Source of the DNA: a virus
DNA length: 64,000 nt
UHGV virus genome: UHGV-0179803
Reading direction: 5' to 3' (one strand)
The notes beneath the pieces were generated by a model. That model ran no database searches. It worked only from the letters and a program-made list of their open reading frames with translations, and was not told the origin of the DNA. Of the stretch, positions 8,579-56,551 are shown in pieces. Both the position numbers and the translations under genes were made by a program. The stretch's first letter is position 1, and each line of letters begins with the position of its first letter.

Positions 8579-8964
8579 ATACGAACCCCATCTGCTGGCC
8601 CAGAGTATCGCTCAGGTTCCGTTACCGGATCACTGGCTGCTGGAGCTTCCATTCGCATCTGAGCCTGATCTCCATCCATATAAAGCCAGAACTCTATCTC
8701 TTCACCAGAAGAAAGGATAGCATAACCGTGGAAGAAATCTTTGTTCTTAGTCAACTTTTCGTCAATTGTTGCTTCGACACAAACTTCTTCATAGCCACTT
8801 TTTTGTAGCGTGTACGTTGCAACCTGGCAAGCATAAGCCTCTTGATCTCTGTAATCTTCACCCAGTGAATGAATGATGAAACCCAAGCCTAATCCGCAAA
8901 ACAGGATAATGCCTAAAGCAAGCATACACTTGGCGAAAGCAACACTGAACAGAAAATTTTTCAT
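8575..8964 (-). CDS. membrane or secreted protein
   Basis: N-terminal hydrophobic segments (FLFSVAFAKCMLALGIILFCGLGLGFII). Confidence 0.4.
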   Translation of the reverse strand: MKNFLFSVAFAKCMLALGIILFCGLGLGFIIHSLGEDYRDQEAYACQVATYTLQKSGYEEVCVEATIDEKLTKNKDFFHGYAILSSGEEIEFWLYMDGDQAQMRMEAPAASDPVTEPERYSGPADGVRI

Positions 8965-9094
8965 ACAATGAACCTCATAGCTTCAACAAACAGAAGACCT
9001 AATGCTGCACCGAACGCAAACCAGCACACCCCATCAATTAACTCCTTAATGAACTTTTTCATGTTGCCCTCTCTTACACATCCTTGTGTAACAT

Positions 9095-9550
9095 TTATTC
9101 AAAAAGTAGCTCTACGTGGTGTAAAATAAGCATTAATTGCATTAACACAATGACAAGAACTACCCAGTTGGCTTTATTATTAACAATTTTACGAATCTTT
9201 TCAGAACGTGATTCAGGTAGAGATCTCAGGATACGCTCTACTGAACGATTCATATCACGGATAGCCATTTTAAAACTGTCCGATCCTTCATCTTGCTCCG
9301 TAACCACGTCGAAAGCACAGTCTTTAGCGTTACCTCCAGAACCACGAGTCACAATGAGTCGATACATTGACACAGAATAATGTGTATTCGACTCAGCGTC
9401 ATAGATGCTGAGAACTTCTTTGGTATGGTCAATTGCTGATGAAAGTTTAATCGCACCAGCTGTCGTCTCAATTTTACCAGCCTCAAGGAGCATTAACCAA
9501 TGCTTTTTATCCAGATTCTCAAGACTAGATCTGACGTACTTCACAAACAT
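9095..9550 (-). CDS. tail-anchored membrane protein
   Basis: 151 aa with C-terminal hydrophobic helix WVVLVIVLMQLMLIL. Confidence 0.4.
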   Translation of the reverse strand: MFVKYVRSSLENLDKKHWLMLLEAGKIETTAGAIKLSSAIDHTKEVLSIYDAESNTHYSVSMYRLIVTRGSGGNAKDCAFDVVTEQDEGSDSFKMAIRDMNRSVERILRSLPESRSEKIRKIVNNKANWVVLVIVLMQLMLILHHVELLFE

Positions 9551-9763
9551 TTAATCCTCCTTGCCGAAAGTTAAAAAGAAGTTAAAATCATCAATCCAGT
9601 CCCAATTAGAGCGGATCATAGGCCACGATTTATCACCATGCTCAACATTGTGGGCGCGATAGTCCATCTCCCACACATCAATTAGCTGGTGCATATACTC
9701 TTTAGCCTGCTCAAGAGACATGTTGTCAGGATCAATTTTTGTAATGTCAATCATCTTCATCAT
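9551..9763 (-). CDS. hypothetical protein
   Basis: 70-aa ORF. Confidence 0.35.
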   Translation of the reverse strand: MMKMIDITKIDPDNMSLEQAKEYMHQLIDVWEMDYRAHNVEHGDKSWPMIRSNWDWIDDFNFFLTFGKED

Positions 9764-38809: not shown

Positions 38810-39102
38810 GGTGGTTACTTGCATTAGCGATTGCACTCACGTTTTCTATGGCCCTGGTAGGTTGTAGCTCACCTAAAAGTACGCCAGTTACAGTTGCACC
38901 GCAGAAAGTTGAACAACTTGCTGTAGAGCCTCCTGCGGCAGCTATGATCCCACCAGCAATAGCTATCCCCTTGGTGAAAGGTGCACCAGATGCGGATAAC
39001 TCTGCAATTATGAGGCAGAACAATCTCTCCTGTAGCAATGATCGTGCCAAATTAATCATCTTGCAGGATTATGTAAAATCTTTATTCAATAAGGAGAATT
39101 AA
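38806..39102 (+). CDS. o-spanin (Rz1-like lipoprotein)
   Basis: signal peptide plus lipobox LVGC, Pro-rich mature region; stop overlaps terL ATG. Confidence 0.75.
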   Translation: MRWLLALAIALTFSMALVGCSSPKSTPVTVAPQKVEQLAVEPPAAAMIPPAIAIPLVKGAPDADNSAIMRQNNLSCSNDRAKLIILQDYVKSLFNKEN

Positions 39103-40215
39103 TGGCTAAAATGTATGGCCCATGCTCCCGTAAACAACAAATGATTCTGGAAAATGATGCCGACTTCCTGATCATTGGTGGGGCAGCGGGTTGTTTGTCA
39201 ATGCGACATGAGGTGATGACACCTAACGGGTGGATCAGAATATCGGAATGGGATGGTCAAGATATCCTCCAGTTTGATAAAGAAACTGGTAAGGCCATGT
39301 TTATCCAGCCTGAAGAGTTTGTTAAGCTGGAATGCGACAAACTAACCAGGATTGTGCAGGATGGTATTTGTCAGGAATTATCCGACGAGCACACAGTTCT
39401 GTACGTCCCAGAAGACGGAACAGCTTACGGTACACTTAATTTCGGAGAAGTGGCTGAACAGTATGCTAACGGTGAGTTGGCAATGCGTATGCAGACCACG
39501 TTTGTGAACATGGGTGGTACTGGCCTTGGCATTTCTGACGAAGAGCTGAAAGAAAGGGCAAGATATTACAAATTCACAGATGAGTGGTATAATTGTGATC
39601 GTCGTCAGTTGTTGCAGATCTGGTATGAGATTTACCTGAACGGTAATGATCCCCATGCCTACGTTGTTCCAACGAAAGAACAGGCTGATTTCTTGCAATA
39701 CCTCGGATCATCTTTAGGTTTCAACGCACAGATCTTCTTCGAAGAAGGTTACAAAGTTGTGTTCTCTAATGAACGTGCAGGTACGATTGCTCTTAATAAC
39801 GATGCAACGTTCGAAGAGTTTGAGCCGGAAGATGGTTACAAATATTGTTTTGCTACCACAACAGGCTATTTTATCACCAGACTGGAAAACTGCATTGCAG
39901 TGACTGGTAACAGTGGTAAATCCTTTCTTCTACAGCTTCTCCCACTAAAGATGATAGATGACCCCAACACTTCTGTGGTGATGTTCCGTAGGACAACTCC
40001 ACAACTGGAAGGTGAAGGTGGTCTGTGGCCTAAAGCACTGAGTGTGTATCTGGATCTTCCTGAGTACATGAGGCCGAAATTCAGAGAGAAAGACCATAAG
40101 TTTACTTTTCCATATTATGATGCAAAGACGGGCAAATGGAATAAGAAAAGAGACGGAGCAGTAATCAAATACTGCCATATGGAATACGTCCAAGATAAGC
40201 TGAATCATCAAGGGT
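39102..40215 (+). CDS. terL: terminase large subunit, exon 1 (ATPase domain, includes intein)
   Basis: MAKMYG...DFLIIGGAAG | intein | SGKSFLLQ reconstitutes Walker A GGAAGSGKS; ORF ends at TAA 40215-40217, proposed to be created by the intron. Confidence 0.75.
39192..39911 (+). mobile_element. intein (240 aa) inserted in terminase P-loop
   Basis: begins CLSMRHEV (Cys1, block A), EHTVLYV block B-like, ends YFITRLENCIAVTGN (C-terminal Asn) followed by Ser +1; removal gives contiguous Walker A. Confidence 0.75.
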
Positions 40216-40742
40216 AAACAAACCTGCCCTTCGTGCCTAATTCGGTGAAACTCCTTGACAAAAGGACAATACCGAGCTACGGTTAAAGGATTAGTTGAAA
40301 CCGAGTGTAACGACTATCCCCGATGAGTGTAGGGGAGTAGAATCACAAGCGATTGGTGATCCAAACGGCACGCCAAGGAGGGAAGAGCTAGTCTGTTCCA
40401 CATGGTAACATGTGGCGGGTGTCTTAGCACACCGCGTCGGAGTAGCGATCCGGCGGGACAAAAGTGGAATATACTTTAATATGTTTTGATGAGGGTTAAC
40501 TGGTAGCTCTCGTAAAACCTCCCTAATTGCGGGGAAATCTTTACTATTGACACCACCAACCTATTATGGTAACATAATATTGGCTTCGGAGAAATACCGA
40601 AGGTATGGTAATAGCGTGTTGATTTAGATAATCCGCAGCGAAGCATCCTGATAGGATGTGTGCTCAACGACTATCGCTTACGGGCGTTAGGGCCAAGCGG
40701 CTGGGGAAACCCACAGTCTTTTAAGACTGCCGAAACGGGAGG

Positions 40743-41036
40743 ATGGGAATGTGTAAAACTAAAAAATGTGTAGATTGCCAGAGAGTCCTACCTCTTGAGG
40801 ATTTCTTTTTATCTTCTAAGAGTAATGATGGGTACTCTGGTACATGCAAGGAATGCTATATGTACTACAGAAAGAATGGATCTCGTAGAAACAAGGATAT
40901 GGTTAAGAGAGATGATGCAGCAGCGTTTATTCAAGATTTGCTAGAGAAAGGTGAGCTTTTTGAATGCAAATCTTGTCATAAAAGTATGCTCGCTGACAAT
41001 TTTACACAAAACGTGATTATGGTAGGGTATATCTAG
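40743..41036 (+). CDS. intron-encoded Cys-rich (Zn-ribbon-like) ORF
   Basis: CxxC pairs (CVDCQ, CKEC, CKSCH); directly upstream of HNH ORF in a different frame; may be a separate protein or a frameshifted N-terminal part. Confidence 0.4.
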   Translation: MGMCKTKKCVDCQRVLPLEDFFLSSKSNDGYSGTCKECYMYYRKNGSRRNKDMVKRDDAAAFIQDLLEKGELFECKSCHKSMLADNFTQNVIMVGYI

Positions 41037-41053
41037 TCACGGGCAGGTGTAAA

Positions 41054-41338
41054 ATGTGTGAGAAGTTCTATCAGCTTGAGAAGAAATTTCACATAACAAA
41101 AGACGAATATTTTCGTCTACTCTCAGATCAAGATTATAAATGTGCCATTTGCGGGATATCACTTGATGAGTATAGGTCGCAAGGGTACAGAGATTTCTTT
41201 AGTGTTGATCATGACCATAAGACTGGCGCTGTAAGAGGTTTGCTTTGTGATAAGTGTAACAGAGCTTTAGGTTTTTTCCAGGAGGATGAGGAAACTCTTC
41301 TTAAAGCGGCAGAGTATTTACACACTCATAAGATATAG
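41054..41338 (+). CDS. intron-encoded HNH endonuclease (endonuclease VII-like)
   Basis: CAICG...VDHDHKTGAVRGLLCDKCNRALGFF signature; ORF ends 3 nt after the S element, i.e. sits in intron loop P8. Confidence 0.8.
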   Translation: MCEKFYQLEKKFHITKDEYFRLLSDQDYKCAICGISLDEYRSQGYRDFFSVDHDHKTGAVRGLLCDKCNRALGFFQEDEETLLKAAEYLHTHKI

Positions 41339-41454
41339 TCTGGTCTGCATGGAGACATGCAGCTGCCACATGGTGGCGGGGCAAGAGTAGCGACCTTGCC
41401 CGAACACAAACGACACAGTTCGATTGGGAGCAAATCGACTACCTGATTTCTCGT

Positions 41455-42534
41455 ATGAGGTCGAAATCGAAATACTCTTCACGGATGGTGATCAGCTGTA
41501 ACCCGGATTCTGAACACTATTTAGCCAAACTGGTTCGTTGGTGGCTTGACGACGAGGGCTACCCAGATGAAAGCAAGTGTGGCGTTAAGCGCTATTTCAT
41601 CCGTAGGGATGGGGAATTTATCTTCGGCGATACGCCAGAAGAGTTGATCGAGAAGTATACCTATGTTAACGGCAAAGGTGTTGAGATAATCCCAAAACCA
41701 CTCTCTATCGCTTTTATCGGTGCAACAATCCACGATAACCCCATCTGCTTGCGTGATAACCCAGAATATCTTGCATTCCTGGAAGGTCTGCCAGAGCTGG
41801 AAAAAGCACAACTCCTCTACGGTAACTGGTTCGCTAAGCCTGAAGGTGCAAACTATTTCAGTCGCACATTCTTGAAAGATGCGGATCATGTCCCCCTCGG
41901 AGCAGTTTCTGTAAGAGCATGGGATAAAGCTGGTACAGAACGTACCTCTGGCAACAAATTCCCCGACTATACAGCCAGTATCAAGGTCAGTAAGGATAGT
42001 GATGGTTACTACTACATCTCCGGTGACTATTGCCCTGAAAACGTAGATGATGGCAGATATTCTACGGGCTTGCACGGTAAGTTCTGCAAGAAAGCTGGGG
42101 AACGTGATGTTATTATCAAGAAACAGGCAGAGTTTGATGGTGAGGACTGCGTAATTGTCTTCTCTGTGGACCCCGGTCAGGCAGGTAAGAGTGAGTTTCT
42201 TACTTCATCTCGTAAACTTCTTGCCGGAGGGTTCAGGGTAGAAGAAGACCCAATGCCGTCTAACAAATCAAAACTCACCCGTTTCTCCCCGTTTGCCAAC
42301 CTTGCCCAACAAGGGATGGTGCGGCTTGTCCGGTCAAGTTTCGACCCGGATACACTGGAAGCATTTTTGACAGAGCTGGAGAAATTTAACGGCGAACGGT
42401 CAACCTTTAGCCGTAAAGATGATTGGGCTGACTCCATTGCTTCTGCAATTAACTACCTTGAAAAAGAGGAAGTTGCTATGCCATGTGTTATTCCGAAGAT
42501 TGTTTCACCCTCTATGTATAAGAGGATGATTTAA
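41455..42534 (+). CDS. terL: terminase large subunit, exon 2 (nuclease domain)
   Basis: VRAWDKAGTERTSGNKFPDYTA and DWADSIASAINY match terminase nuclease motifs; frame open from 41332, true 3' splice junction unresolved within ~41399-41454. Confidence 0.75.
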   Translation: MRSKSKYSSRMVISCNPDSEHYLAKLVRWWLDDEGYPDESKCGVKRYFIRRDGEFIFGDTPEELIEKYTYVNGKGVEIIPKPLSIAFIGATIHDNPICLRDNPEYLAFLEGLPELEKAQLLYGNWFAKPEGANYFSRTFLKDADHVPLGAVSVRAWDKAGTERTSGNKFPDYTASIKVSKDSDGYYYISGDYCPENVDDGRYSTGLHGKFCKKAGERDVIIKKQAEFDGEDCVIVFSVDPGQAGKSEFLTSSRKLLAGGFRVEEDPMPSNKSKLTRFSPFANLAQQGMVRLVRSSFDPDTLEAFLTELEKFNGERSTFSRKDDWADSIASAINYLEKEEVAMPCVIPKIVSPSMYKRMI

Positions 42535-47245: not shown

Positions 47246-48670
47246 GTGTTCTATCCAGTTGAATATGATCCGAAATTACGGATTTTCAATAACCAGGTAG
47301 ACTTCTACGAATTTCTGGCAGAAGCTAATCCAGAAATCAACGTAGGTCTGTCTGCGTTATTACCACCAACCGAATTTGTTGTTGGTGAAAAACACTTCCC
47401 ATGCAGAACGATTGTGGATTTCTTCGAACAGATTGCAGAACAGACTGGATTGCCAATCGACACGGAAGCCTCCACTATCCGTATGGGTGTAATTCTTTTG
47501 TTCTTCACAGAAGACTTGGGTGAGAGCATCTTAACACTTCAAAGCGGTGATGCTCATATTACGCTTACCCCTTCCGTGTTTAAAGAGGTAGATGCTGCTT
47601 CCAAGGTTTCAGTGGCAAAAGGTCATCTGTGGTATCCTGAAGAAATGCCCAGCAAGGTTACCATAAATGATGAGCAATGTGATGTTGTTTATGCAGAGGG
47701 TACTCAAACTTTCACCATTGGGTGGCCTAAGAAACGTTCTCAGGTTGTAAATCCAGGTCTGACTTCCGAACCGATTGTAAGAGAAGAGTGGGAAGAGAGT
47801 CCTAATACGCTACCAAATGAAAGAGCACTTAAAGAAGACGGTACTTTAAAAATGGGAACGGGTGTAAAAGGCACTTATGCTACAGTTACCAGTGATGGGG
47901 TAATTGAATTAGCACTCATTCCAATGATACCTGGTCGTAAAGTATTAGGTCCTGCTGGCGATGATGGTATTTTTACTAAAACAGAAAAAGGCGACGTTTC
48001 TTGTTTCTTTGGTGTGACTAGTTTGAAATATCCGTTAAAAGATGTAATTGGTTTATATGATTCCATTACTTTAGATGTAATTAGTGATGGTACACCTATA
48101 CAAAAAATGGACTTACAATTACATAATGGCGGTTGGTATGACAAAAACGGAGAAATGTTAGAGGGTACTTACCTTGACGAATATACTATTCAAGAAGCCA
48201 CTCGTGTATCATTCTATGCAGAAAGGGGTAGAGAACATAAGTTTGTTTTAAGTGCTACCTCTGGAGAAAACACGGAGAGCATAGAAGTTACCGTTATTGA
48301 TGAGTACGTAGAACCGGATCCTGAACCAGAGCTGGAACCAGAGCCGGACCCGGATACAGGAGTTGACCCAGGACCTGATCCAGAATCATTACCTGAGCCA
48401 GGACCCACTGTGGGAGACAACGGTGAAACTACAGGGCCTGCTGAATCACAGGGTGCGGAGCCAGCTATAATGACAATGAGTATGGAAGAAGCTGCTCCCG
48501 ATAGCGTCGATGCCATCCTACAGCAGGCTGCTGTTTTAGAAGACGAAGCAGACAAGAGTGGCTCTAAAGTGGCTCTTGAAGCATTCGCCAAACAATACGG
48601 TGTGAGCTTAGCTCGAAATAAAACTTTCGCCAATATGATGAAAGATTTCGAAGCAGCTCTTAGAGCATAA
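47246..48670 (+). CDS. structural protein with Pro/Glu/Asp-rich linker (possible capsid fibre or decoration)
   Basis: 474 aa, GTG start with RBS AAAGGAG; EPDPEPELEPEPDPDTGVDPGPDPESLPEPGP low-complexity linker; bounded by terminators. Confidence 0.4.
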   Translation: MFYPVEYDPKLRIFNNQVDFYEFLAEANPEINVGLSALLPPTEFVVGEKHFPCRTIVDFFEQIAEQTGLPIDTEASTIRMGVILLFFTEDLGESILTLQSGDAHITLTPSVFKEVDAASKVSVAKGHLWYPEEMPSKVTINDEQCDVVYAEGTQTFTIGWPKKRSQVVNPGLTSEPIVREEWEESPNTLPNERALKEDGTLKMGTGVKGTYATVTSDGVIELALIPMIPGRKVLGPAGDDGIFTKTEKGDVSCFFGVTSLKYPLKDVIGLYDSITLDVISDGTPIQKMDLQLHNGGWYDKNGEMLEGTYLDEYTIQEATRVSFYAERGREHKFVLSATSGENTESIEVTVIDEYVEPDPEPELEPEPDPDTGVDPGPDPESLPEPGPTVGDNGETTGPAESQGAEPAIMTMSMEEAAPDSVDAILQQAAVLEDEADKSGSKVALEAFAKQYGVSLARNKTFANMMKDFEAALRA

Positions 48671-48692
48671 AATTAAAAATTACACCACTACT

Positions 48693-48730
48693 GGCCCCAC
48701 ACCATTCCCGGTCTGGGGCTTTATTTTTAT
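48693..48730 (+). terminator. rho-independent terminator
   Basis: GCCCCA..TGGGGC hairpin followed by TTTATTTTTAT. Confidence 0.5.
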
Positions 48731-48781
48731 CAGCTTACATGTTATAATAATTAAGTGTTCATAATCCTCAAAGGAGATAGA

Positions 48782-49456
48782 ATGGCGTGGTATGAAGAAG
48801 AAGAGGTAGTCCCTACTCCTGGTGGGGGAGAGCCTGAAAATCCAGATCCTGTAGGGCCAGATGTTGGTGAAGGCGAGGAACCCACAGATCCTGTGCCTGA
48901 GGAACCGGAACTGCCGACTGTACCAGATGAAGATATTGATCCAGATTTTAGTCAAGAAGATTCATTGTCAGCATTCGTTCGTATTCTGCTTGGTAATGTA
49001 TCACCTGAAGTACTTCCACCGGAAACACTGGCTCTGTTTGTAGAAATGGCAGTAATGAAATACGATCTGGAAAACCATCCAGAAAGGTTGCCGAATGTCA
49101 AATATGATGCAATGGTCCAGGCTGTACGCTGGCTGATGGTTCAGGAAGTTGCGAGCGGTGAGTCCAGCATCAGTTCTCGTCTGGAAAAAGTTGGTGATGA
49201 AACTATCGAAGTCCGTATAGGTCAGACTACATGGCAAGGCTGGAAAGACTTCCTTGACTGGCTGGTTGCCAATCCAGATTATGTTGACTCTGAACTGGAT
49301 TCCTGTGGCAGACTGGTTATCATCGGTGGTGTGCGTGAAGATGAGTTCCAGAGAGTCAAACGTAATAGAAACAGTGTTTGTGGCTTTGATGTTTCTGGTA
49401 TCACACCTATGAGTGGTTTACATGGACAACCAAAAAGATACCCATCTCGCAGGTAA
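48782..49456 (+). CDS. hypothetical structural protein (acidic Pro-rich N-terminus)
   Basis: start MAWYEEEE with RBS AAAGGAG (track start 48755 over-extended); N-terminal PENPDPVGPDVGEGEEPTDPVPEEPELP. Confidence 0.4.
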   Translation: MAWYEEEEVVPTPGGGEPENPDPVGPDVGEGEEPTDPVPEEPELPTVPDEDIDPDFSQEDSLSAFVRILLGNVSPEVLPPETLALFVEMAVMKYDLENHPERLPNVKYDAMVQAVRWLMVQEVASGESSISSRLEKVGDETIEVRIGQTTWQGWKDFLDWLVANPDYVDSELDSCGRLVIIGGVREDEFQRVKRNRNSVCGFDVSGITPMSGLHGQPKRYPSRR

Positions 49457-49471
49457 TTTGCTAAATTAGTA

Positions 49472-49500
49472 TTGAAAATTGTTGCAGCCTGTGGTATAAT
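49472..49500 (+). promoter_or_regulatory. sigma70-type promoter with extended -10
   Basis: TTGAAA 49472-49477, 17-nt spacer, TGGTATAAT 49492-49500. Confidence 0.5.
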
Positions 49501-49518
49501 TTATCTATTGGGGGCAAA

Positions 49519-49986
49519 GTGCTTAGAGTAAAATGCACTTCTAAAACCAATTTTAAGCCGCTTGAAAGGTTCCACAGGGAACTTATTAAGTTGGAAAGTA
49601 AAACAATCTCCTATGGATTCTACGACGAAGAACATTACTCCGGCCTGAATATGGCAACACTGGCTGCAATTCATAACTTTGGCTGGAATGGTCTTCCGGT
49701 TCGTAACTTCATGGAAACTGCTTTCGTATTTTATAATGCGGAACTCTCCAAGCAGATGGAACGACTGCTCCGCGCGATGGCGCGTGGGGCAAGTCCAGAT
49801 ACTATCCTGAAGCAAATCGGTAAAGGCGGGGCTGAGGCCATTAAGTTTGTTATCGAGGCGGGGATGTTCAGCAATCCAAAGGTTAGCGAACAGTGGGCGC
49901 AAGAAAAAGGCTTTAACGAAGCTATGCGTCATTATGATGTGTTGCTTGAGTCAGCAACCTTCAAAATCGGACAATTAAAAGACTAA
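49519..49986 (+). CDS. head-tail joining / virion morphogenesis protein (putative)
   Basis: 155-aa ORF between head and tail modules; positional inference. Confidence 0.3.
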   Translation: MLRVKCTSKTNFKPLERFHRELIKLESKTISYGFYDEEHYSGLNMATLAAIHNFGWNGLPVRNFMETAFVFYNAELSKQMERLLRAMARGASPDTILKQIGKGGAEAIKFVIEAGMFSNPKVSEQWAQEKGFNEAMRHYDVLLESATFKIGQLKD

Positions 49987-49996
49987 TGGAGGTTGA

Positions 49997-50434
49997 ATGG
50001 CTGTAGGCTACAGATTGATTGGTAAAAATAAATTAATTCCGAGAAAGACTTTTAAAGGTCGTCACAGAACGCTTAAACGCATTGATAACAGCCCTTTTGC
50101 TAACAAAGGTGTTGAGCTTGAGATAGAAGAGTTCGATGTTTTAGAATGCGTTATGCAGCCTTTAACAGGCCGTGCGGCTAAAGACTACTCCTCGCAAATT
50201 AACCCCGAAGGTGGCAGACAATACGAAGCGTATACAGTTTACTCTTCTGTACGTCTACGTAACCCCGACGAAGGGGAATATCAACTTGCAGATCAGATCC
50301 AGTTGCCAAACCTGCATGGTGAGTTAACATGGTTCACTGTTCTGAAATGCGATCAATATCATACATCAGGTGTGGAAAGATACCGCTCCTATGTTGTGGA
50401 AGAACCCGCAAATAACGAAGGAGACACAATCTGA
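49997..50434 (+). CDS. neck / tail completion protein (putative)
   Basis: 145-aa ORF, tightly coupled to neighbours. Confidence 0.3.
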   Translation: MAVGYRLIGKNKLIPRKTFKGRHRTLKRIDNSPFANKGVELEIEEFDVLECVMQPLTGRAAKDYSSQINPEGGRQYEAYTVYSSVRLRNPDEGEYQLADQIQLPNLHGELTWFTVLKCDQYHTSGVERYRSYVVEEPANNEGDTI

Positions 50435-50982
50435 TGGAAGAGTTTGAAAAAGTTTTTAGCGATCTGGAGGAAATTGTTGCTAAGATGGCAAGAGTTGCCA
50501 CAGGCAGACGTGTCATCATGGGTGATCAGGAGATCATTCCGAAACCAGATGGTGAGTTTATCCTTCTTGAAACGATGGGTATTCAGCCACACATCTGGGA
50601 AGACAATGAATTCCAGACCGAAGAGGGTGTTGCTTACGTTACCCACAACTACACAGTTACCTATATGTTAACTGCCTATCGTGGTAAAGCGTATGCAGCA
50701 TTGTCCAGATTATTGCAAGCAATAAACCTTCCGATGTTTTACGATAAATTCTTTCCTGATGGTTCTATGTACGCCTATTCTTCGGCCTCTACAATCTCAC
50801 CTCTGCGAGTACCGATGAATAAGCAAGCATATGAGGTAAGAGCCACGGTAATGATGACGTTTAACGTCAGGTTTATTGAGACTGACATGGCAGCGTTCGA
50901 AGATCTTCAGGGCATCGAAGCTGAGCTTCATGTTCTCCACCCTGCTGATGACAGTCAAGCGGTTATCGACCCTGGTCAGTAA
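50434..50982 (+). CDS. neck / tail completion protein (putative)
   Basis: 182-aa ORF, start overlaps upstream stop. Confidence 0.3.
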   Translation: MEEFEKVFSDLEEIVAKMARVATGRRVIMGDQEIIPKPDGEFILLETMGIQPHIWEDNEFQTEEGVAYVTHNYTVTYMLTAYRGKAYAALSRLLQAINLPMFYDKFFPDGSMYAYSSASTISPLRVPMNKQAYEVRATVMMTFNVRFIETDMAAFEDLQGIEAELHVLHPADDSQAVIDPGQ

Positions 50983-51054
50983 TCGTTCTCCATGTAGCGT
51001 AATGATTATGCTACTTGTTAATATCCTGTGCACAAGATATTGAAGAGGAAACAA

Positions 51055-52443
51055 ATGCCTTACAATGATAAAGTTGTCGATGTGCAAGTAAACCTGGGTA
51101 CACAGCCGATTGACACAGTAGGCTTCGAAACTCCCCTGTTTATTGCCATCCACAATAATTTTACTGAACGCGCTCGCGTTTACGCTGAACTCGATCAGTT
51201 AGTTGACGATGGTTTTGCACCAGGTAGTGCTGCTCACACCTTCGCTTCTAACGCTTTCGGTGGTGAGTTTCCGCCACAATACATTGTCATTGGTCGTCAG
51301 GCTGCAACAGAAACTGTTGTTGACTTTGTTGGTGGTGTATTCCCAGCTGAATCTGAAGTTATCGTAAACGTAGCAATCCCTAATTATGATCGTGCCGTAG
51401 TCATCCAAGTTGGTGGTGGTACTGCTGCTACAGCAATTGCTGAGGCTCTGGCTACAGCGATCACTGAAGATGAAACCTTGTCAGGTGCTGGCGTAACTGC
51501 TACCGCTGGGGAAGGTAAAGTTACCGTTACAGGGGCTACCGTAGGCTACAGTGCTGGCGATTTCAAAATCGAAAATAAATCTGATGAAACTCCGCAGACG
51601 ATTATCGATGAAATCAATGACGCGAACAACAACTGGTATTTCCTGTGTGCCGAAGATCACAGCACTACTGCTATCACAGCTCTTGCAAAATGGGCACAAG
51701 CTAACTACAAACTCCATGTTTACTCCACTGCTGATGAAGATGCAATGGGCGTAGAAGGGGGTATCGGTTACGCTCTCAAACTGCTCCAGATTGATAATAC
51801 CATAGGTATGTGGGATCCGCGTGCTAACATGGACTTCCCAGAAGGTGGTATCATCGGTGCAATGGCATCCAATGACCCGTCATATGGTGATAGCTTACAC
51901 CTGAAAAAAATGCCAGGCATTACTCCTCCGAACATGAGTATCGGACAGAGAATGGCATTGTGGGATAATAACCTGAACTTCTACAGAATGATCAATGGTG
52001 TTGGTTGCTTCTGGGAAGGTAAATGCGCTTCAGGCCAATATGCTGACGTAATCAGATTCTCCCACTGGATCAAATTCCGTTCCGAAGAATCTATGTTTGG
52101 CTACATGCATCGCAGATCCAATATAGGCATGAGCATGAAAATGTCTGATGATGACCTGCCTGTTATTAAATCTGTTCTGATGAACGACCCGATCAACGTT
52201 GGTATCACCAACGGTGCTATCCTGACCGGATATGACGAAGAAAATAGTGTGTTCTATGATCCGATTATCACTGTTCCGAAACGTGCTAACATCCCTACCA
52301 ATCAGCTGGCTGCTCGCACTTTGGAAGGTGTTAAAGTAGAACTGGTCTATAACAACGCTCTGCACTTTGTTAAAATCCGTATCAATGTCCTGCTGGACAA
52401 AACGGGTACTACCGGCACAAGTGCTCAGGCAATGACTGCATAA
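51055..52443 (+). CDS. tail sheath-like major tail protein (putative)
   Basis: about 462 aa from ATG 51055 (RBS GAGGAAA), followed 12 nt later by a 157-aa ORF: sheath/tube size pair; optimized codons; family not verified. Confidence 0.45.
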   Translation: MPYNDKVVDVQVNLGTQPIDTVGFETPLFIAIHNNFTERARVYAELDQLVDDGFAPGSAAHTFASNAFGGEFPPQYIVIGRQAATETVVDFVGGVFPAESEVIVNVAIPNYDRAVVIQVGGGTAATAIAEALATAITEDETLSGAGVTATAGEGKVTVTGATVGYSAGDFKIENKSDETPQTIIDEINDANNNWYFLCAEDHSTTAITALAKWAQANYKLHVYSTADEDAMGVEGGIGYALKLLQIDNTIGMWDPRANMDFPEGGIIGAMASNDPSYGDSLHLKKMPGITPPNMSIGQRMALWDNNLNFYRMINGVGCFWEGKCASGQYADVIRFSHWIKFRSEESMFGYMHRRSNIGMSMKMSDDDLPVIKSVLMNDPINVGITNGAILTGYDEENSVFYDPIITVPKRANIPTNQLAARTLEGVKVELVYNNALHFVKIRINVLLDKTGTTGTSAQAMTA

Positions 52444-52454
52444 CAGGAGGGTAA

Positions 52455-52928
52455 ATGGTCACAGATATTTTAACACCTTATGCATATGACCCGAAAAAGG
52501 TTCGTCTCTACTTGATGACTCAGAGAGTATTCGGTTTTGCAGCGGATACAAAAATTGTTGTTTCTCGTAACGAGGACAATATTTACCCGCATATGGGCGT
52601 GGATGGTGAACTAAGTGCAGCTTTATCCCGTAACCAATCTGGTGTAATGACTGTATCTTTACAGAACACCTCCGCATGGAACGCCTACCTGTCAGACTGG
52701 CAGAAACAAGCATCTATCACAGGTCTTGTATTCTTCCCAGTGCTGCTGGAAGGTAGCCAGGGGCCAGGCATCAGCACTATTGGCTGGATTCAGAAACAAC
52801 CTGATCTGACTTATGGTACTGAAGTTGCCCAACTTGACTGGGAAATCGGCGTACTGGATTGCTGGTTAAACAAAGACAACATCGAATCTGCAATGATGGG
52901 ACTTGCAGGTTTAACTGGTATCATTTAA
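52455..52928 (+). CDS. tail tube-like protein (putative)
   Basis: 157-aa ORF directly after sheath-like gene, terminator downstream. Confidence 0.45.
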   Translation: MVTDILTPYAYDPKKVRLYLMTQRVFGFAADTKIVVSRNEDNIYPHMGVDGELSAALSRNQSGVMTVSLQNTSAWNAYLSDWQKQASITGLVFFPVLLEGSQGPGISTIGWIQKQPDLTYGTEVAQLDWEIGVLDCWLNKDNIESAMMGLAGLTGII

Positions 52929-52935
52929 TGCTACA

Positions 52936-52960
52936 GGCCACCTTCGGGTGGCCTTTCTTG
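52936..52960 (+). terminator. rho-independent terminator
   Basis: GGCCACC-TTCG-GGTGGCC followed by TTTCTTGTTT. Confidence 0.7.
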
Positions 52961-52970
52961 TTTATAAGGT

Positions 52971-53000
52971 TTGACAAAAGTTGGTGTTTTGTGGTATAGT
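52971..53000 (+). promoter_or_regulatory. sigma70-type promoter with extended -10
   Basis: TTGACA 52971-52976, 18-nt spacer, TGGTATAGT 52992-53000. Confidence 0.5.
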
Positions 53001-53033
53001 TCCTTTGTGTTTAAAATTACTAGGAGTTTACAG

Positions 53034-54560
53034 ATGGCTGGAAAATGTTACACTAAAAAAGAATGGCTAACAGCTGTCTTCAAAGAAAACCCTGAGTTTG
53101 AAGAAATGTACGATTACAGTCAAACTGAGTACAAAGGCAGTAGAGAAAAAGTGAGCATTATTTGCAAAAAACATGGTGCGTTTTCTGTAGAAGCAAATGC
53201 TCATAGAAAAGGAGAGGGATGCAAAGAATGCTACCTTGAGCGTAAACGTGGAAACAAGGAAGAATTCGTTGAAAAAGCTAAAGAAGTGCATGGGGTGCGT
53301 TACAACTACTCTAAGGTTGTGTATAAAGACAGAGTGACAAAAGTAGATATCATCTGCCCTGATCACGGAGTGTTCTCACAAAAACCTAGCAAACATTTGA
53401 GAGGACAGGGCTGCCCCCATTGTGCTAACATGGCTCGTGGTAGAAAAAGAAGAAACTCTTTTGAGGAAGTAGTGGAACAGGCCAAAGAGGTCCACAAAGA
53501 TAAATACGTTTACAAAGGTATGTTTTACGATGAAAGGAAGAAAGGTATTCTTAATATTAAATGTTCAAGGTGTGGATCAGAGTTCCAACAACCTGTGAAA
53601 GACCATGTACACCAAAATCATGGGTGTAGACATTGTGCAAAACTAACCTCAAGAGTGGAAGAATCTGTCTTTGACTTCATAAAAACTATCTGCCCAGACG
53701 CGGAGCAGTCTGATCGCACTATCCTGGATGATGGCAAAGAGTTAGATATCTATGTCCCATCAAAGCGTGTGGCGATTGAAGTCAATGGTATCTTCTGGCA
53801 TGGAGACAATCATAAGCCTAGGGATTATCATTACAAAAAATGGTTAGCCTGTAAAGAGAAAGGTATTCGTCTGATCCAGATCACAGATTATGATTGGAAT
53901 AACAACCAAAAAGTGTTTAGCCAGTTGCTGGCTCATGCCTTGGGGTGCAATAGTGAGCGTAAAGTGAATGCTAGGGAATGCGAAGTGGTGCATCTCAAAT
54001 CAACAGAGTGCAAAGAGTTTTACAACGCTTACCACCCACAAGGCCATTCTCCTAACCCAATTAATCTGGCCTTGAAAACGAAAGAAGGGGAAATTGTAGC
54101 GATCATGAGCTTTGGTTATGGTAAAACTACAAGGGGTCAGGCCAGAGCTAACGGTACGACTAAAGCAACATGGGAGTTATCAAGATTTGCATCAAGCTGC
54201 TCTGTTCGTGGTGGGGCATCTCGACTGTTTAAAACGTTCATCAGAGAGAACAATCCAGAAGAGGTTAGCTCATTCAGCATGAATGACTACTTCGCTGGTG
54301 GGGTTTACGAAGTGTTAGGATTTGTTGCGGAGACGTATGGCAAACCAGACTACAGAGTGTTCCATCCGTTCAGCGGGTTACGCCACAAATCATACTGGCA
54401 ACGCCGTAATATCCCGAAACGTTTGAAAGAACTGGGTAAAGAAGAATTAAACTTTGACCCAGAAATTGATCAGCGTACAGAGCGGGAGATAGAGGATTTG
54501 GTTGGTGCTATCCGGTTGTGGGACAGCGGCAAGATCAAATGGGTATGGAAAGCTGAGTAA
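53034..54560 (+). CDS. free-standing nuclease-like protein: Zn-ribbon repeats plus PD-(D/E)xK (Vsr/DUF559-like) domain
   Basis: three repeats of C..HG.F......H..G.GC..C (e.g. ICPDHGVFSQKPSKHLRGQGCPHCA); DIYVPSKRVAIEVNGIFWHG fits D..E.NG..WH nuclease core; own promoter and terminator. Confidence 0.5.
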   Translation: MAGKCYTKKEWLTAVFKENPEFEEMYDYSQTEYKGSREKVSIICKKHGAFSVEANAHRKGEGCKECYLERKRGNKEEFVEKAKEVHGVRYNYSKVVYKDRVTKVDIICPDHGVFSQKPSKHLRGQGCPHCANMARGRKRRNSFEEVVEQAKEVHKDKYVYKGMFYDERKKGILNIKCSRCGSEFQQPVKDHVHQNHGCRHCAKLTSRVEESVFDFIKTICPDAEQSDRTILDDGKELDIYVPSKRVAIEVNGIFWHGDNHKPRDYHYKKWLACKEKGIRLIQITDYDWNNNQKVFSQLLAHALGCNSERKVNARECEVVHLKSTECKEFYNAYHPQGHSPNPINLALKTKEGEIVAIMSFGYGKTTRGQARANGTTKATWELSRFASSCSVRGGASRLFKTFIRENNPEEVSSFSMNDYFAGGVYEVLGFVAETYGKPDYRVFHPFSGLRHKSYWQRRNIPKRLKELGKEELNFDPEIDQRTEREIEDLVGAIRLWDSGKIKWVWKAE

Positions 54561-54564
54561 TCAT

Positions 54565-54590
54565 AAGCCTCTTCGGAGGCTTTTCTGTCT
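54565..54590 (+). terminator. rho-independent terminator
   Basis: AAGCCTC-TTCG-GAGGCTT followed by TTCTGTCT. Confidence 0.6.
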
Positions 54591-54593
54591 ACA

Positions 54594-54622
54594 TTGACAA
54601 AAAGTGAGTACAATGTTATAAT
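54594..54622 (+). promoter_or_regulatory. sigma70 consensus promoter
   Basis: TTGACA 54594-54599, 17-nt spacer, TATAAT 54617-54622. Confidence 0.55.
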
Positions 54623-54701
54623 AAATCTATATAATAACGTGGTGGTGACAGTTGTCTAAAATCGCATATCTGAATGCTTTTCATAAGAGGATAATAAAGA
54701 A

Positions 54702-55844
54702 ATGACAGATATCTACAACGATAAAGTTGTACACGCCGAGGTGGCTCTTGGTAAAGACGCTGCATCGGGTGGCAACAGGACTTCTCTGGATAAAGAGGCT
54801 TTACGAAGTTATGTTCTTGCTGCTAGAGAGGCGGCTAACAAAGCTAAAGTGGCTTCAGAAGAGGCAGCTTTATCACGAGACGCTTCCCAAGCAAACGCTA
54901 ACAATGCATCGATTTCCGCAACCAATGCACAAGATAGTGCAGATCGTGCAGAATCAGCAGCTAACGCAGCCGAATTATCTTCCTCTTCTGCTGAGGGCAG
55001 TGCAACTGCCGCTGCCTTATCTGCAACGCAAGCATCCGCTGATGCATCTACAGCAACACAAGCAAAAGATGACGCTGTTGCAGCCTCTGGTGTGGCAACC
55101 CAACAAGCAGCAAATGCTGAATCATCTGCCGATACATCCGCTGAAAGTGCAGATGCAGCAGCAGCAAGTGCCGCTTCTGCTCAAGGATCTGCAACTTCTG
55201 CTTCCGGTTCTGCCACGACTGCAACAGAGAAAGCAACAGCAGCGAACAAATCTGCCACCGCAGCAAAAACGTCAGAGACTAATGCCAAAACCTCTGAAAC
55301 CAACGCCGCAAGCTCAGCTAGTGCAGCATCCGTTTCAGAAAGCAATGCTTCTGATTCTGCAACAGCAGCAGAGTCTTCAGCGACTTCTGCAAGATCGAGT
55401 GCTTCAAGTGCATCGACAAGCGCCAGCACAGCCACTACTAAAGCGAACGAAGCTGCAACCAGCGCCACTGATGCTGCTAACAGTGCCAAATCCGCTTCTA
55501 ATAGTGCATCAACTGCGACAACAAAAGCAGGTGAAGCAAGTAAGTCAGCAACAGATGCTGCAAATTCAGCAAGCTCTGCTTCAGCAAGCAAAGATGCTGC
55601 TGCTGCCTCAGCCAGCGCCGCAGCTACCAGCGAAACCAAAGCAAAAGCCAGTGAAACTGCTGCTGCAAGCTCTGCTTCTTCGGCAGCCACCAAAGCATCC
55701 GAGGCTGCAACATCTGCCACTAACGCAGCAAAAAGTGCATCAGACGCTGCAAATAGTGTGGAGGAGGTAAAAGCACAGTTCGAACAGCGCCTTACTGAAC
55801 TTGAGGCAAGAATTGCTGCTCTTGAGGGTGCTAAAAATAATTGA
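54702..55844 (+). CDS. Ala/Ser/Thr-rich fibrous protein resembling the low-complexity shaft of side-tail-fibre (Stf) proteins
   Basis: 380 aa; repeats such as AAKTSETNAKTSETNAASSASAAS and SASTATTKAGEASKSATDAANSA; short C-terminal coiled coil; no receptor-binding domain; own promoter and terminator. Confidence 0.55.
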   Translation: MTDIYNDKVVHAEVALGKDAASGGNRTSLDKEALRSYVLAAREAANKAKVASEEAALSRDASQANANNASISATNAQDSADRAESAANAAELSSSSAEGSATAAALSATQASADASTATQAKDDAVAASGVATQQAANAESSADTSAESADAAAASAASAQGSATSASGSATTATEKATAANKSATAAKTSETNAKTSETNAASSASAASVSESNASDSATAAESSATSARSSASSASTSASTATTKANEAATSATDAANSAKSASNSASTATTKAGEASKSATDAANSASSASASKDAAAASASAAATSETKAKASETAAASSASSAATKASEAATSATNAAKSASDAANSVEEVKAQFEQRLTELEARIAALEGAKNN

Positions 55845-55868
55845 CACAAAAACCGCTTGATGTATTAT

Positions 55869-55897
55869 GCCTCCAACAAACAAGTTGGGGGCTTTTG
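55869..55897 (+). terminator. rho-independent terminator
   Basis: GCCTCCAAC..GTTGGGGGC hairpin followed by TTTTGCT. Confidence 0.5.
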
Positions 55898-56011
55898 CTA
55901 TGAAACACTTTGAAGAGACTTAGGGTTGCATCTTTTGGATTATTGCAACACTGATGATCGGTCTGTTCTTTGTTGTACCTGGTGTGGAGGCTGCACGGAC
56001 TATGCACCTTG

Positions 56012-56040
56012 TTGACAAAAAGAAAGTACAATGCTATAAT
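56012..56040 (+). promoter_or_regulatory. sigma70 consensus promoter
   Basis: TTGACA 56012-56017, 17-nt spacer, TATAAT 56035-56040. Confidence 0.55.
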
Positions 56041-56086
56041 AAACCTATGCGATAACGCATAACAACTAACTTAAGGGTAACGAGAA

Positions 56087-56551
56087 ATGCCAAACTTTAG
56101 ACCTACTACAGAAATAGATTTAGTCGGACATAACTTCATCATAACCCATTGGTCCCCGATGGTGTGTATGCATAACCTGCCAAAGATTGGTAGGATTATC
56201 GCTGTGCCGATGGGAGCTATTGGTGGTGAATTACTTAATGGTGGGAGAAATTTAGCAGAAGTGCTCCCAACAGCCTTAGTCTATCTGTTCGAACAACTTG
56301 ATGACCAATCTATTGACGAACTGTTTAAAATCCTCTTCAGCGATGTTACAGTAGACGGTGTGGACAAGGTGGATCCTGATAAACTCTTTACTGGCAATCT
56401 GTTTGCAATGCTTAAACTGGCTGGTAAGGTGCTGGAGGTAAATTACGGATCTTTTTTCACGCAAGAAGGTTTAGACGGCCTGATGTCGATGTTGCAGGGA
56501 CTGCAAATGGCGAATCAGATCAACAGTCTGGACCAGGAAACTCAGGAATAA
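56087..56551 (+). CDS. tail assembly chaperone (G-like)
   Basis: 154-aa ORF immediately upstream of tape measure gene; contains in-register slippery heptamer; -1 frame ORF 56563..56808 follows. Confidence 0.6.
   Translation: MPNFRPTTEIDLVGHNFIITHWSPMVCMHNLPKIGRIIAVPMGAIGGELLNGGRNLAEVLPTALVYLFEQLDDQSIDELFKILFSDVTVDGVDKVDPDKLFTGNLFAMLKLAGKVLEVNYGSFFTQEGLDGLMSMLQGLQMANQINSLDQETQE
56452..56458 (+). other. -1 programmed ribosomal frameshift slippery site T_TTT_TTC
   Basis: heptamer in zero-frame register (codons TTT TTC = FF of GSFFTQ); the -1 frame is open from here to stop at 56806-56808, predicting a ~240-aa G-T-like fusion. Confidence 0.5.

Follow-up and report, generated by a model that had tools for sequence, protein, structure and literature searches.

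The locus between the tail tube and chaperone genes

We analyzed a stretch of 64,000 nucleotides (hereafter the window) of the virus genome UHGV-0179803, which belongs to a myovirus of the rV5-like (Vequintavirinae-type) kind. Between its tail tube and tail assembly chaperone genes lies an open reading frame (ORF) whose product, judged by its sequence, is a member of the known Hef-like family of free-standing homing endonucleases, which carry a Vsr-like nuclease of the "EDxHD" type. Membership of this family is already familiar in phages, and as a locus the gene is ordinary. The closest cultured phages share only ~70% identity with the window at the DNA level and 88% at that of the tube protein, and contigs of ~91% identity were found in metagenome 3300045988 and in a number of sequencing runs. 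The genes and signals at the locus are as follows.

51028-52443: sheath gene (PHROG/Pfam)
52455-52928: tube gene (PHROG/Pfam)
52935-52954, + strand: intrinsic terminator of the tail-tube gene (-16.1 kcal/mol, z -4.0)
52971-53000, + strand: sigma-70-type promoter of the endonuclease gene (TTGACA, 18 nt, TGgTATAGT)
53022-53026, + strand: Shine-Dalgarno sequence AGGAG, 7 nt upstream of the ATG
53034-54560, + strand: ORF of the Hef-like homing endonuclease (ATG at 53034, stop at 54558-54560, 508 amino acids)
54565-54590, + strand: intrinsic terminator of the endonuclease gene (hairpin 54565-54582 and a T-rich tail)
56087-56551: tail assembly chaperone gene, with a downstream frame at 56563-56808 (PHROG/Pfam)
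56866-59220: tape measure gene (PHROG/Pfam)

The original prediction, which was made from the letters alone, had assigned to this ORF its own promoter and terminator, and both the gene and its signals were confirmed. The frame is intact, has its own Shine-Dalgarno sequence, which is kept in the relatives L003 and L004, and shares its ATG with orthologues. A program-made ORF list starts the gene at TTG 52971, but the orthologues in L003, L004 and P0001-P0004 begin at the ATG, and therefore ATG 53034 was taken as the start. The promoter has a TG extension and matches the consensus at 11 of 12 positions, and the + strand of the window contains only seven sites of this strength, four of which are located within 52971-56040. 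The hairpin of the terminator (-10.5 kcal/mol, z -3.4) is conserved in L003 and L004. Upstream, the cassette is limited by the tube terminator, which relatives keep whether or not they have the insert. The G+C content of the gene (42.5% versus 43.7% for the window) is unremarkable, and no paralogues were found within the window.

Domain architecture of the encoded protein

The protein is composed of three modules.

53034-53648, + strand, residues 1-205: three treble-clef Zn-finger repeats (CapR/DUF723/DUF4379-type)
53649-53942, + strand, residues 206-303: Vsr-like (EDxHD-type) nuclease domain
53943-54557, + strand, residues 304-508: GNAT-fold domain, putatively a remote homologue of phage Mu Mom

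The conserved residues of the nuclease domain are E209, D238, E249, N251, H256, D258, and K269. With its core, DIYVPSKRVAIEVNGIFWHG, Pfam gave only weak Vsr and MTES_1575 matches. The only PDB chain matched by sequence was 3R3P, the catalytic domain of I-Bth0305I, with an E-value of 0.0094 for the single sequence and 6.9e-8 for a profile of 34 sequences, which upholds the Vsr-like nuclease core that had been proposed. In the alignment, D238, N251, and H256 correspond to D196, N208, and H213 of I-Bth0305I, and all are invariant in the 34 sequences. E209 is likewise invariant and is a plausible counterpart of the first Glu of the EDxHD pentad, being correctly placed, but outside the aligned stretch. 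I-Bth0305I is the prototype of the EDxHD family, within which phage Hef-type enzymes have been placed (Taylor et al. 2011; PMC3239194). The two proteins share a homologous catalytic domain with the near-identical motif K(K/R)(L/V)AIEVNG(V/I)(Y/F)WH and the aligned D, N, and H, whereas I-Bth0305I is intron-encoded, has NUMOD/helix-turn-helix DNA-binding modules and a C-terminal nuclease, and lacks a GNAT domain. The Vsr mismatch-repair endonuclease proper was rejected, based on scores of 15.9-18.4 bits against 27 for Pfam Vsr and 14.5 against 97.9 for NCBIfam vsr; all matches of the window protein in the NCBIfam scan were at noise level. End-to-end matches were obtained with PHROG 559, labeled "HNH endonuclease" (3e-103), and PHROG 3339, labeled "homing endonuclease" (2e-72). 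Since no HNH family in Pfam matched the window protein at E<=1, the HNH label is not borne out and, judged on sequence, is a misnomer for this protein.

Homologues are present in 966 phage records, many of them annotated as homing or Hef-like endonucleases, and 393 phage records contain the combined nuclease and GNAT core at a coverage of 80% or more, among them those of Acj9, the Campylobacter phages CP8 and IBB_35, AR9, and LIMEstone1 (F-LimX). Up to 12 copies per genome occur in Campylobacter phages, and one GenBank record labels a homologue "putative nuclease/acetyltransferase protein". The core is common to the Hef-like enzymes of T4-like, ViI-like, Campylobacter, and jumbo phages and to F-LimIII/VII/VIII/X of LIMEstone1, which, like the window gene, are free-standing, lie between conserved genes, are patchily distributed, and occur as several alleles per site; one of the LIMEstone members likewise adjoins a tail-tube gene. 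The "Hef-like" protein of the T-even phage N2, encoded between nrdA and nrdB, is 32% identical to residues 208-400 (E 2e-22), but this T-even protein has another N-terminal DNA-binding region in place of the three DUF723/DUF4379 Zn fingers. The hef gene product of phage U5 is reported, according to a review, to cleave nrdB (PMC2988022). Compared with these Hef-like proteins, the window gene differs by its rV5-like host lineage and its site between the tube and chaperone genes.

The three Zn-finger repeats, which had been noticed as Zn-ribbon-like, are located at approximately residues 9-73, 75-138, and 142-206, and each consists of a helix and a treble-clef Zn knuckle. Their ligands, C44/H47/C63/C66 (CHCC), C108/H111/C127/C130 (CHCC), and C177/C180/C198/C201 (CCCC), are conserved in the 34-sequence alignment. 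The Pfam family DUF4379 ("treble clef zinc finger") scored 31.8 bits, above its cut-off of 24.5, and among 41 family members, 39 matched DUF723 and 13 matched CapR (best 5.8e-19). The array is presumed to be the DNA-recognition part of the enzyme. Zn fingers of the same type, likewise repeated and exchangeable, serve T5orf172 homing endonucleases for DNA binding (Barth et al. 2023; PMC10448857), and these arrays share with that of the window the repeated treble-clef module, a varying copy number, and evidence of modular exchange, but their nuclease partner is the GIY-YIG-like T5orf172 and not a Vsr-like domain. In one of the related loci (L035, 1-985), a gene upstream of the head-tail adaptor gene combines DUF723 Zn fingers with a T5orf172/MUG113 nuclease, and thus a Zn-finger module of the window type is also joined to another nuclease class.

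Compared to the homologues P0002-P0006, identity is 37-41% in the Zn-finger region, but 77-94% in the nuclease and 82-90% in the GNAT domain. Because the synonymous sites of the finger region are saturated (pS ~0.8), versus a dS of 0.25-0.98 in the remainder of the gene, the array has been swapped by recombination and is not merely fast-evolving, which indicates that whole arrays move between alleles as modules. The swap, the C-terminal domain of ~200 residues described next, and a second cassette downstream of the gene had been overlooked in the original prediction.

The C-terminal domain is the best-conserved portion of the protein and was assigned a GNAT fold. Using hhalign, the family profile matched a 28-sequence alignment of Mom with a probability of 91.7% (E 7.9e-7, 128 columns), and broader alignments (148 versus 120 sequences) gave 73.6% (E 2.9e-5) in an unchanged register. 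Pfam Mom (PF25680) matched 11 of the 41 family members, weakly (best 0.0026), and was the sole GNAT-type or acetyltransferase family among the 25 families most frequently matched by them, and three homologues already carried a precomputed PF25680 match. The window protein itself gave no PF25680 match, and its isolated C-terminal domain matched nothing in Pfam, even at E 10. The relation was seen only with a Mom-family alignment: the family compared by hhalign to a single Mom sequence was negative, as was the Mom-family profile compared to a single T-even Hef-like protein, and cross-matches between the family and Mom in hmmsearch were weak (12-23 bits). Pfam searches with representatives in which the domain is not placed C-terminally were uninformative. 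The domain thus appears to be a remote homologue of Mom, on statistics that are moderate and silent on activity. No published description of a Mom or GNAT domain in Hef-like enzymes was found in the literature.

Phage Mu Mom (PF25680; PDB 8BV8) is a tRNA-Gly-dependent DNA adenine aminoacyl-transferase, in which R111, S124, D149, and R151, and also H58, Y59, and Y159, matter (PMC13219725, PMC7261163), R151 being essential (PMC13219725). Their equivalents in the window protein are listed below.

Mom H58: H334, kept
Mom Y59: P335, not kept
Mom R111: R384, kept ("WELSR" against "MELNR")
Mom S124: S396, kept
Mom D149: M416, not kept
Mom R151: D418, not kept
Mom Y159: Y425, kept

The window protein therefore lacks the full set of Mom activity residues, with D149, R151, and Y59 replaced. 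In 148 diverse representatives of the domain, the equivalents of H334, R384, S396, and Y425 are kept in 97%, 99%, 85%, and 99%, respectively. Asp occupies position 416 in 82% of them, and Arg, the commonest residue at position 418, is found there in 41%. The family consensus reads S-[FY]-S-D-N-R, against S-F-A-D-E-R in Mom, and the window protein and its subclade have the rarer S-F-S-M-N-D. The conservation across these representatives means that the family at large retains most of the Mom constellation. The domain occurs in ~8,965 clusters at 50% identity. In summary, the likeness to Mom consists of the GNAT fold, profile homology over ~125-130 columns, the common H, R, S, and Y positions, the S-F-x-D-x-R motif, which most family members have, and a helical insertion ahead of the last strand, whereas the window domain differs by its fusion to a nuclease, the M and D at the positions of D149 and R151, and the loss of Y59, and single-sequence comparisons are insignificant. 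The Mom-like domain is probably an integral part of the enzyme, for which DNA or base binding, dimerization, and transferase activity are candidate roles.

Occupancy of the site and exchange of cassettes

Comparison of the site between the tube and chaperone genes in relatives, ordered by the identity of their tube protein, gave the following picture.

Window clade (tube 95-99% identical): occupied, endonuclease identity varying by allele
rV5-like relatives L007-9 (tube 88%): empty
L034/L035 (tube 82-85%): occupied, endonuclease 56% identical
19 loci of other genera (Ro1/L001, L010-L026; tube 62-82%): empty
L036/L037 (tube 60%): occupied, endonuclease 47% identical

The empty loci of other genera include a group with 77-82% and a phiTE-like group with 62-64% tube identity. 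Together with five rV5-like relatives (L006-L009 among them), there are 24 empty-site relatives, and in these just 78-177 bp separate the stop of the tube gene from the start of the chaperone gene, compared to ~1.75 kb or more where the site is occupied. The gene is therefore an insertion, and since occupied and empty lineages interleave along the scale of flank-gene identity, with occupants in three separate lineages, it is accessory and has been repeatedly gained or lost. The original prediction that the gene interrupts the tail cluster thus held with respect to synteny, but two cassettes and not one have been inserted in the window. A structural or tail role was rejected because no structural homology was found and many relatives with otherwise the same tail gene order miss the gene. 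Conservation at this position in all relatives together with structural-protein homology, which had been named as the pattern that would refute the original prediction, gave a mixed picture: every close relative seen (tube 95-99%) has the gene, but many remoter ones lack it, and the protein resembles no structural protein. "HNH endonuclease" features near the sheath gene of Klebsiella phage K45PH128C2 were not used, because their annotation is shifted or pseudo-flagged.

Within the window clade, orthologues of the gene are 86-92% (L003, L004), 70% (L028), 69% (L031), and 62% (L032) identical, but L005 (550 amino acids) and L002 (635 amino acids, five fingers), although ~91% identical as genomes, carry at the same site an enzyme of another lineage that is only 32% identical. 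L031 contains two Hef-like genes in tandem. In L002, a small acidic ORF (8517-8906; 129 amino acids from a TTG, ~109 from the first ATG) for which Pfam gave no match lies between the tube gene and the five-finger Hef-like gene. The ratio of nonsynonymous to synonymous substitution rates (dN/dS) between orthologues was 0.06-0.18 in all three modules, so that the whole protein is under purifying selection. No clear co-conversion tract was visible in the flanking identity profiles, just local drops beside the gene in L028 and L031.

When compared with genomes carrying the other allele, homology ends at 52977, just past the -35 box of the endonuclease promoter, and resumes at 56012, at the -35 box of the chaperone promoter. 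Compared with genomes carrying the orthologous allele, the window is colinear over 48364-54639 and then jumps to 56012. These positions coincide with the following features.

54594-54639, + strand: first copy of the chaperone-promoter region (12/12 promoter at 54594-54622)
54594-56011: second promoter-gene-terminator cassette (gene 54702-55844, terminator 55869-55892)
56012-56057, + strand: second copy of the chaperone-promoter region (12/12 promoter at 56012-56040)

The two copies form a 46-bp direct repeat. In relatives, the equivalent of the first copy directly precedes the chaperone gene, whereas in the window it drives a gene for an Ala/Ser-rich protein of 380 amino acids, which has a coiled coil at one end and weakly matches tail-fibre-repeat PHROGs (2.9e-15), and homology to all close relatives restarts at 56012. 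This second cassette of ~1.4 kb between the 46-bp copies (54640-56011) was absent from every relative examined and is found in the window only. A search for its origin gave only tail-fibre-repeat matches of 55-85 bp, and the cassette contains no tandem repeat. The interval thus consists of stacked cassettes, each with promoter, gene, and terminator, for which promoter sequences are the points of exchange. Elsewhere in the window, ~600 bp (47767-48364) of ORF 47246-48670, which encodes a head-associated protein with a Pro/Glu-rich linker, are without counterpart in relatives of 91% identity and are another mosaic replacement.

Further observations were made at a distance from the site. The large terminase gene of the window (39102-42534) is interrupted, with two group I intron matches between its halves, both just below the Rfam threshold of 50 bits.

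40169-40415: group I intron match, 38 bits, E 2e-7
40461-41362: group I intron match, 47.9 bits, E 2e-10

The second match contains an endonuclease VII ORF (41054-41338; Pfam 9e-23) and a Cys-rich ORF (40743-41036). The N-terminal terminase fragment (39102-40217) reads "...IIGGAAG CLSMRHEV...CIAVTGN SGKSFLL...", which, on a reading of the letters, looks like a mini-intein inserted in the Walker A loop; Pfam gave no match. The tape-measure gene is uninterrupted in the window, but in close relatives it is split, at the equivalent of window residue 412 (~58102), by inserts of ~830-860 bp.

L003 12230-13057: tape-measure insert
L004 12230-13086: tape-measure insert
L005 12294-13150: tape-measure insert

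The inserts of L004 and L005 are ~80% identical to positions 40382-40460 and 40651-40738 of the terminase intron region of the window, and in L034 an HNH_3 gene is located in the tape-measure gap (8708-9649). Finally, 16 near-consensus sigma-70-type promoters (11-12/12) were found on the minus strand between 6000 and 35200, all of them leftward, which suggests an early/middle transcription block of the phage.

Probable homing and alternative readings

Taken together, we consider it likely, with a probability of roughly 0.75, that the gene is a functional free-standing Hef-like homing endonuclease, carried as a promoter-gene-terminator cassette between the tube terminator and the chaperone promoter. 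The host RNA polymerase would transcribe it from its own consensus-like promoter, and the terminators at both ends would keep its transcription apart from that of the tail genes. With its three N-terminal Zn fingers, the enzyme would read a long DNA target, and the Vsr-like domain (D238, N251, H256) would cut the DNA of a co-infecting relative without the allele, at or near the tube/chaperone junction, after which recombinational repair off the carrier genome would copy the cassette with flanking markers into the cut genome. The family, the autonomy of the gene, its presence and absence among relatives, and the replacement of alleles at the same site give good support to the free-standing homing endonuclease of the original prediction. 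The defence or counter-defence cargo that had been offered beside it was not substantiated, as PADLOC gave only its "HEase, homing endonuclease" model (2.8e-6).

Several observations weigh against homing. The fifth residue of the pentad is off its aligned position, since D222 of I-Bth0305I aligns with the non-conserved H266, and the window family has, in place of the last Asp of the pentad, the invariant D258 two residues past the His. The identity of the gene roughly follows that of its flanks (86-92%, 56%, and 47%), which also fits a long vertical residence with losses, a history that is inseparable here from repeated site-specific invasion. No recent empty allele, which would be the homing substrate, was found within the clade, as all close relatives found carry a Hef-like gene. 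Strong purifying selection in a gene fixed in its clade is unexpected for a purely selfish element at a saturated site and hints at a benefit to the phage. The parts of the gene and the pattern among relatives are seen in the sequence, and cleavage, target, and biased inheritance are inferred from the family.

These observations bear on a second reading, in which a nuclease of Hef-like descent has been domesticated and is kept for the benefit of the phage, by marker exclusion or interference with other phages or satellites, or for DNA processing, and not for homing. It would account for the presence of the gene at the same site in every close relative seen as well as in two more distant lineages, for the low dN/dS in all modules, and for the unremarkable composition, and the repeated replacement of the recognition array resembles retargeting. 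There is also a precedent in ICP1 Odn, a domesticated relative of homing endonucleases with a swapped DNA-binding domain (PMC10448857). However, the classic picture of selfish cassettes in competition is that of non-orthologous alleles and tandem copies in a single intergenic site, many related phages are without the gene, and PADLOC gave no match beyond the homing endonuclease model. In addition, the reading overlaps with that of a homing enzyme, of which marker exclusion is a known by-product, and we consider domestication unlikely.

The conservation of the C-terminal domain raises the question of a second activity. Hef-like enzymes at large may be two-enzyme proteins, composed of a Vsr-like nuclease and a Mom-type transferase, among which the window protein, with its remodeled site, would be a variant, but this remains a tentative and rather doubtful proposal. 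That the window protein itself acts as both nuclease and modifier, with a catalytic Mom-like GNAT domain that modifies DNA or another nucleic acid and, for example, marks or protects the carrier's own target in the style of a single-chain restriction-modification system, is considerably less probable. The two hhalign matches in a shared register, the standing of Mom among the Pfam families matched, the conservation of the H58, R111, S124, D149, and Y159 positions in the 148 members (97%, 99%, 85%, 82%, and 99%), and the position of the domain as the best-conserved portion of the protein argue for it. On the other hand, M416 and D418 replace D149 and the essential R151 of Mom in the window protein and its subclade (PMC13219725), the protein has no Pfam Mom match, and the homology statistics are moderate. 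Moreover, a diffusible modifier would shield both genomes in a mixed infection, which weakens the logic of self-protection, and the GNAT fold may be a module for binding or dimerization, the latter being required by I-Bth0305I (PMC3239194).

That the gene is only what is left of a selfish element, decaying or inactive and without a function today, is highly improbable. Degeneration is the expected fate of fixed homing endonuclease genes, and within the clade the site is saturated, but the frame is full-length, every residue invariant in the 34-sequence alignment is retained, dN/dS is low, and orthologues share the promoter, Shine-Dalgarno sequence, and terminator, all of which are intact.

As a homing endonuclease, the gene accounts mainly for local mosaicism, and it cautions annotators over the wrong "HNH" label. 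The locus forms a natural series of empty, single, double, and non-orthologous occupants, with swapped finger arrays, in which retargeting and competition can be studied. If Hef-like enzymes are indeed two-enzyme proteins and the domain is active, they would modify DNA or another nucleic acid besides cutting, and Mom itself may be a freed copy of a homing endonuclease module, which would make the origin of Mom testable. The tRNA-dependent chemistry of Mom was worked out only in 2026, and an active domain would make widespread "selfish nucleases" modifiers of nucleic acids.

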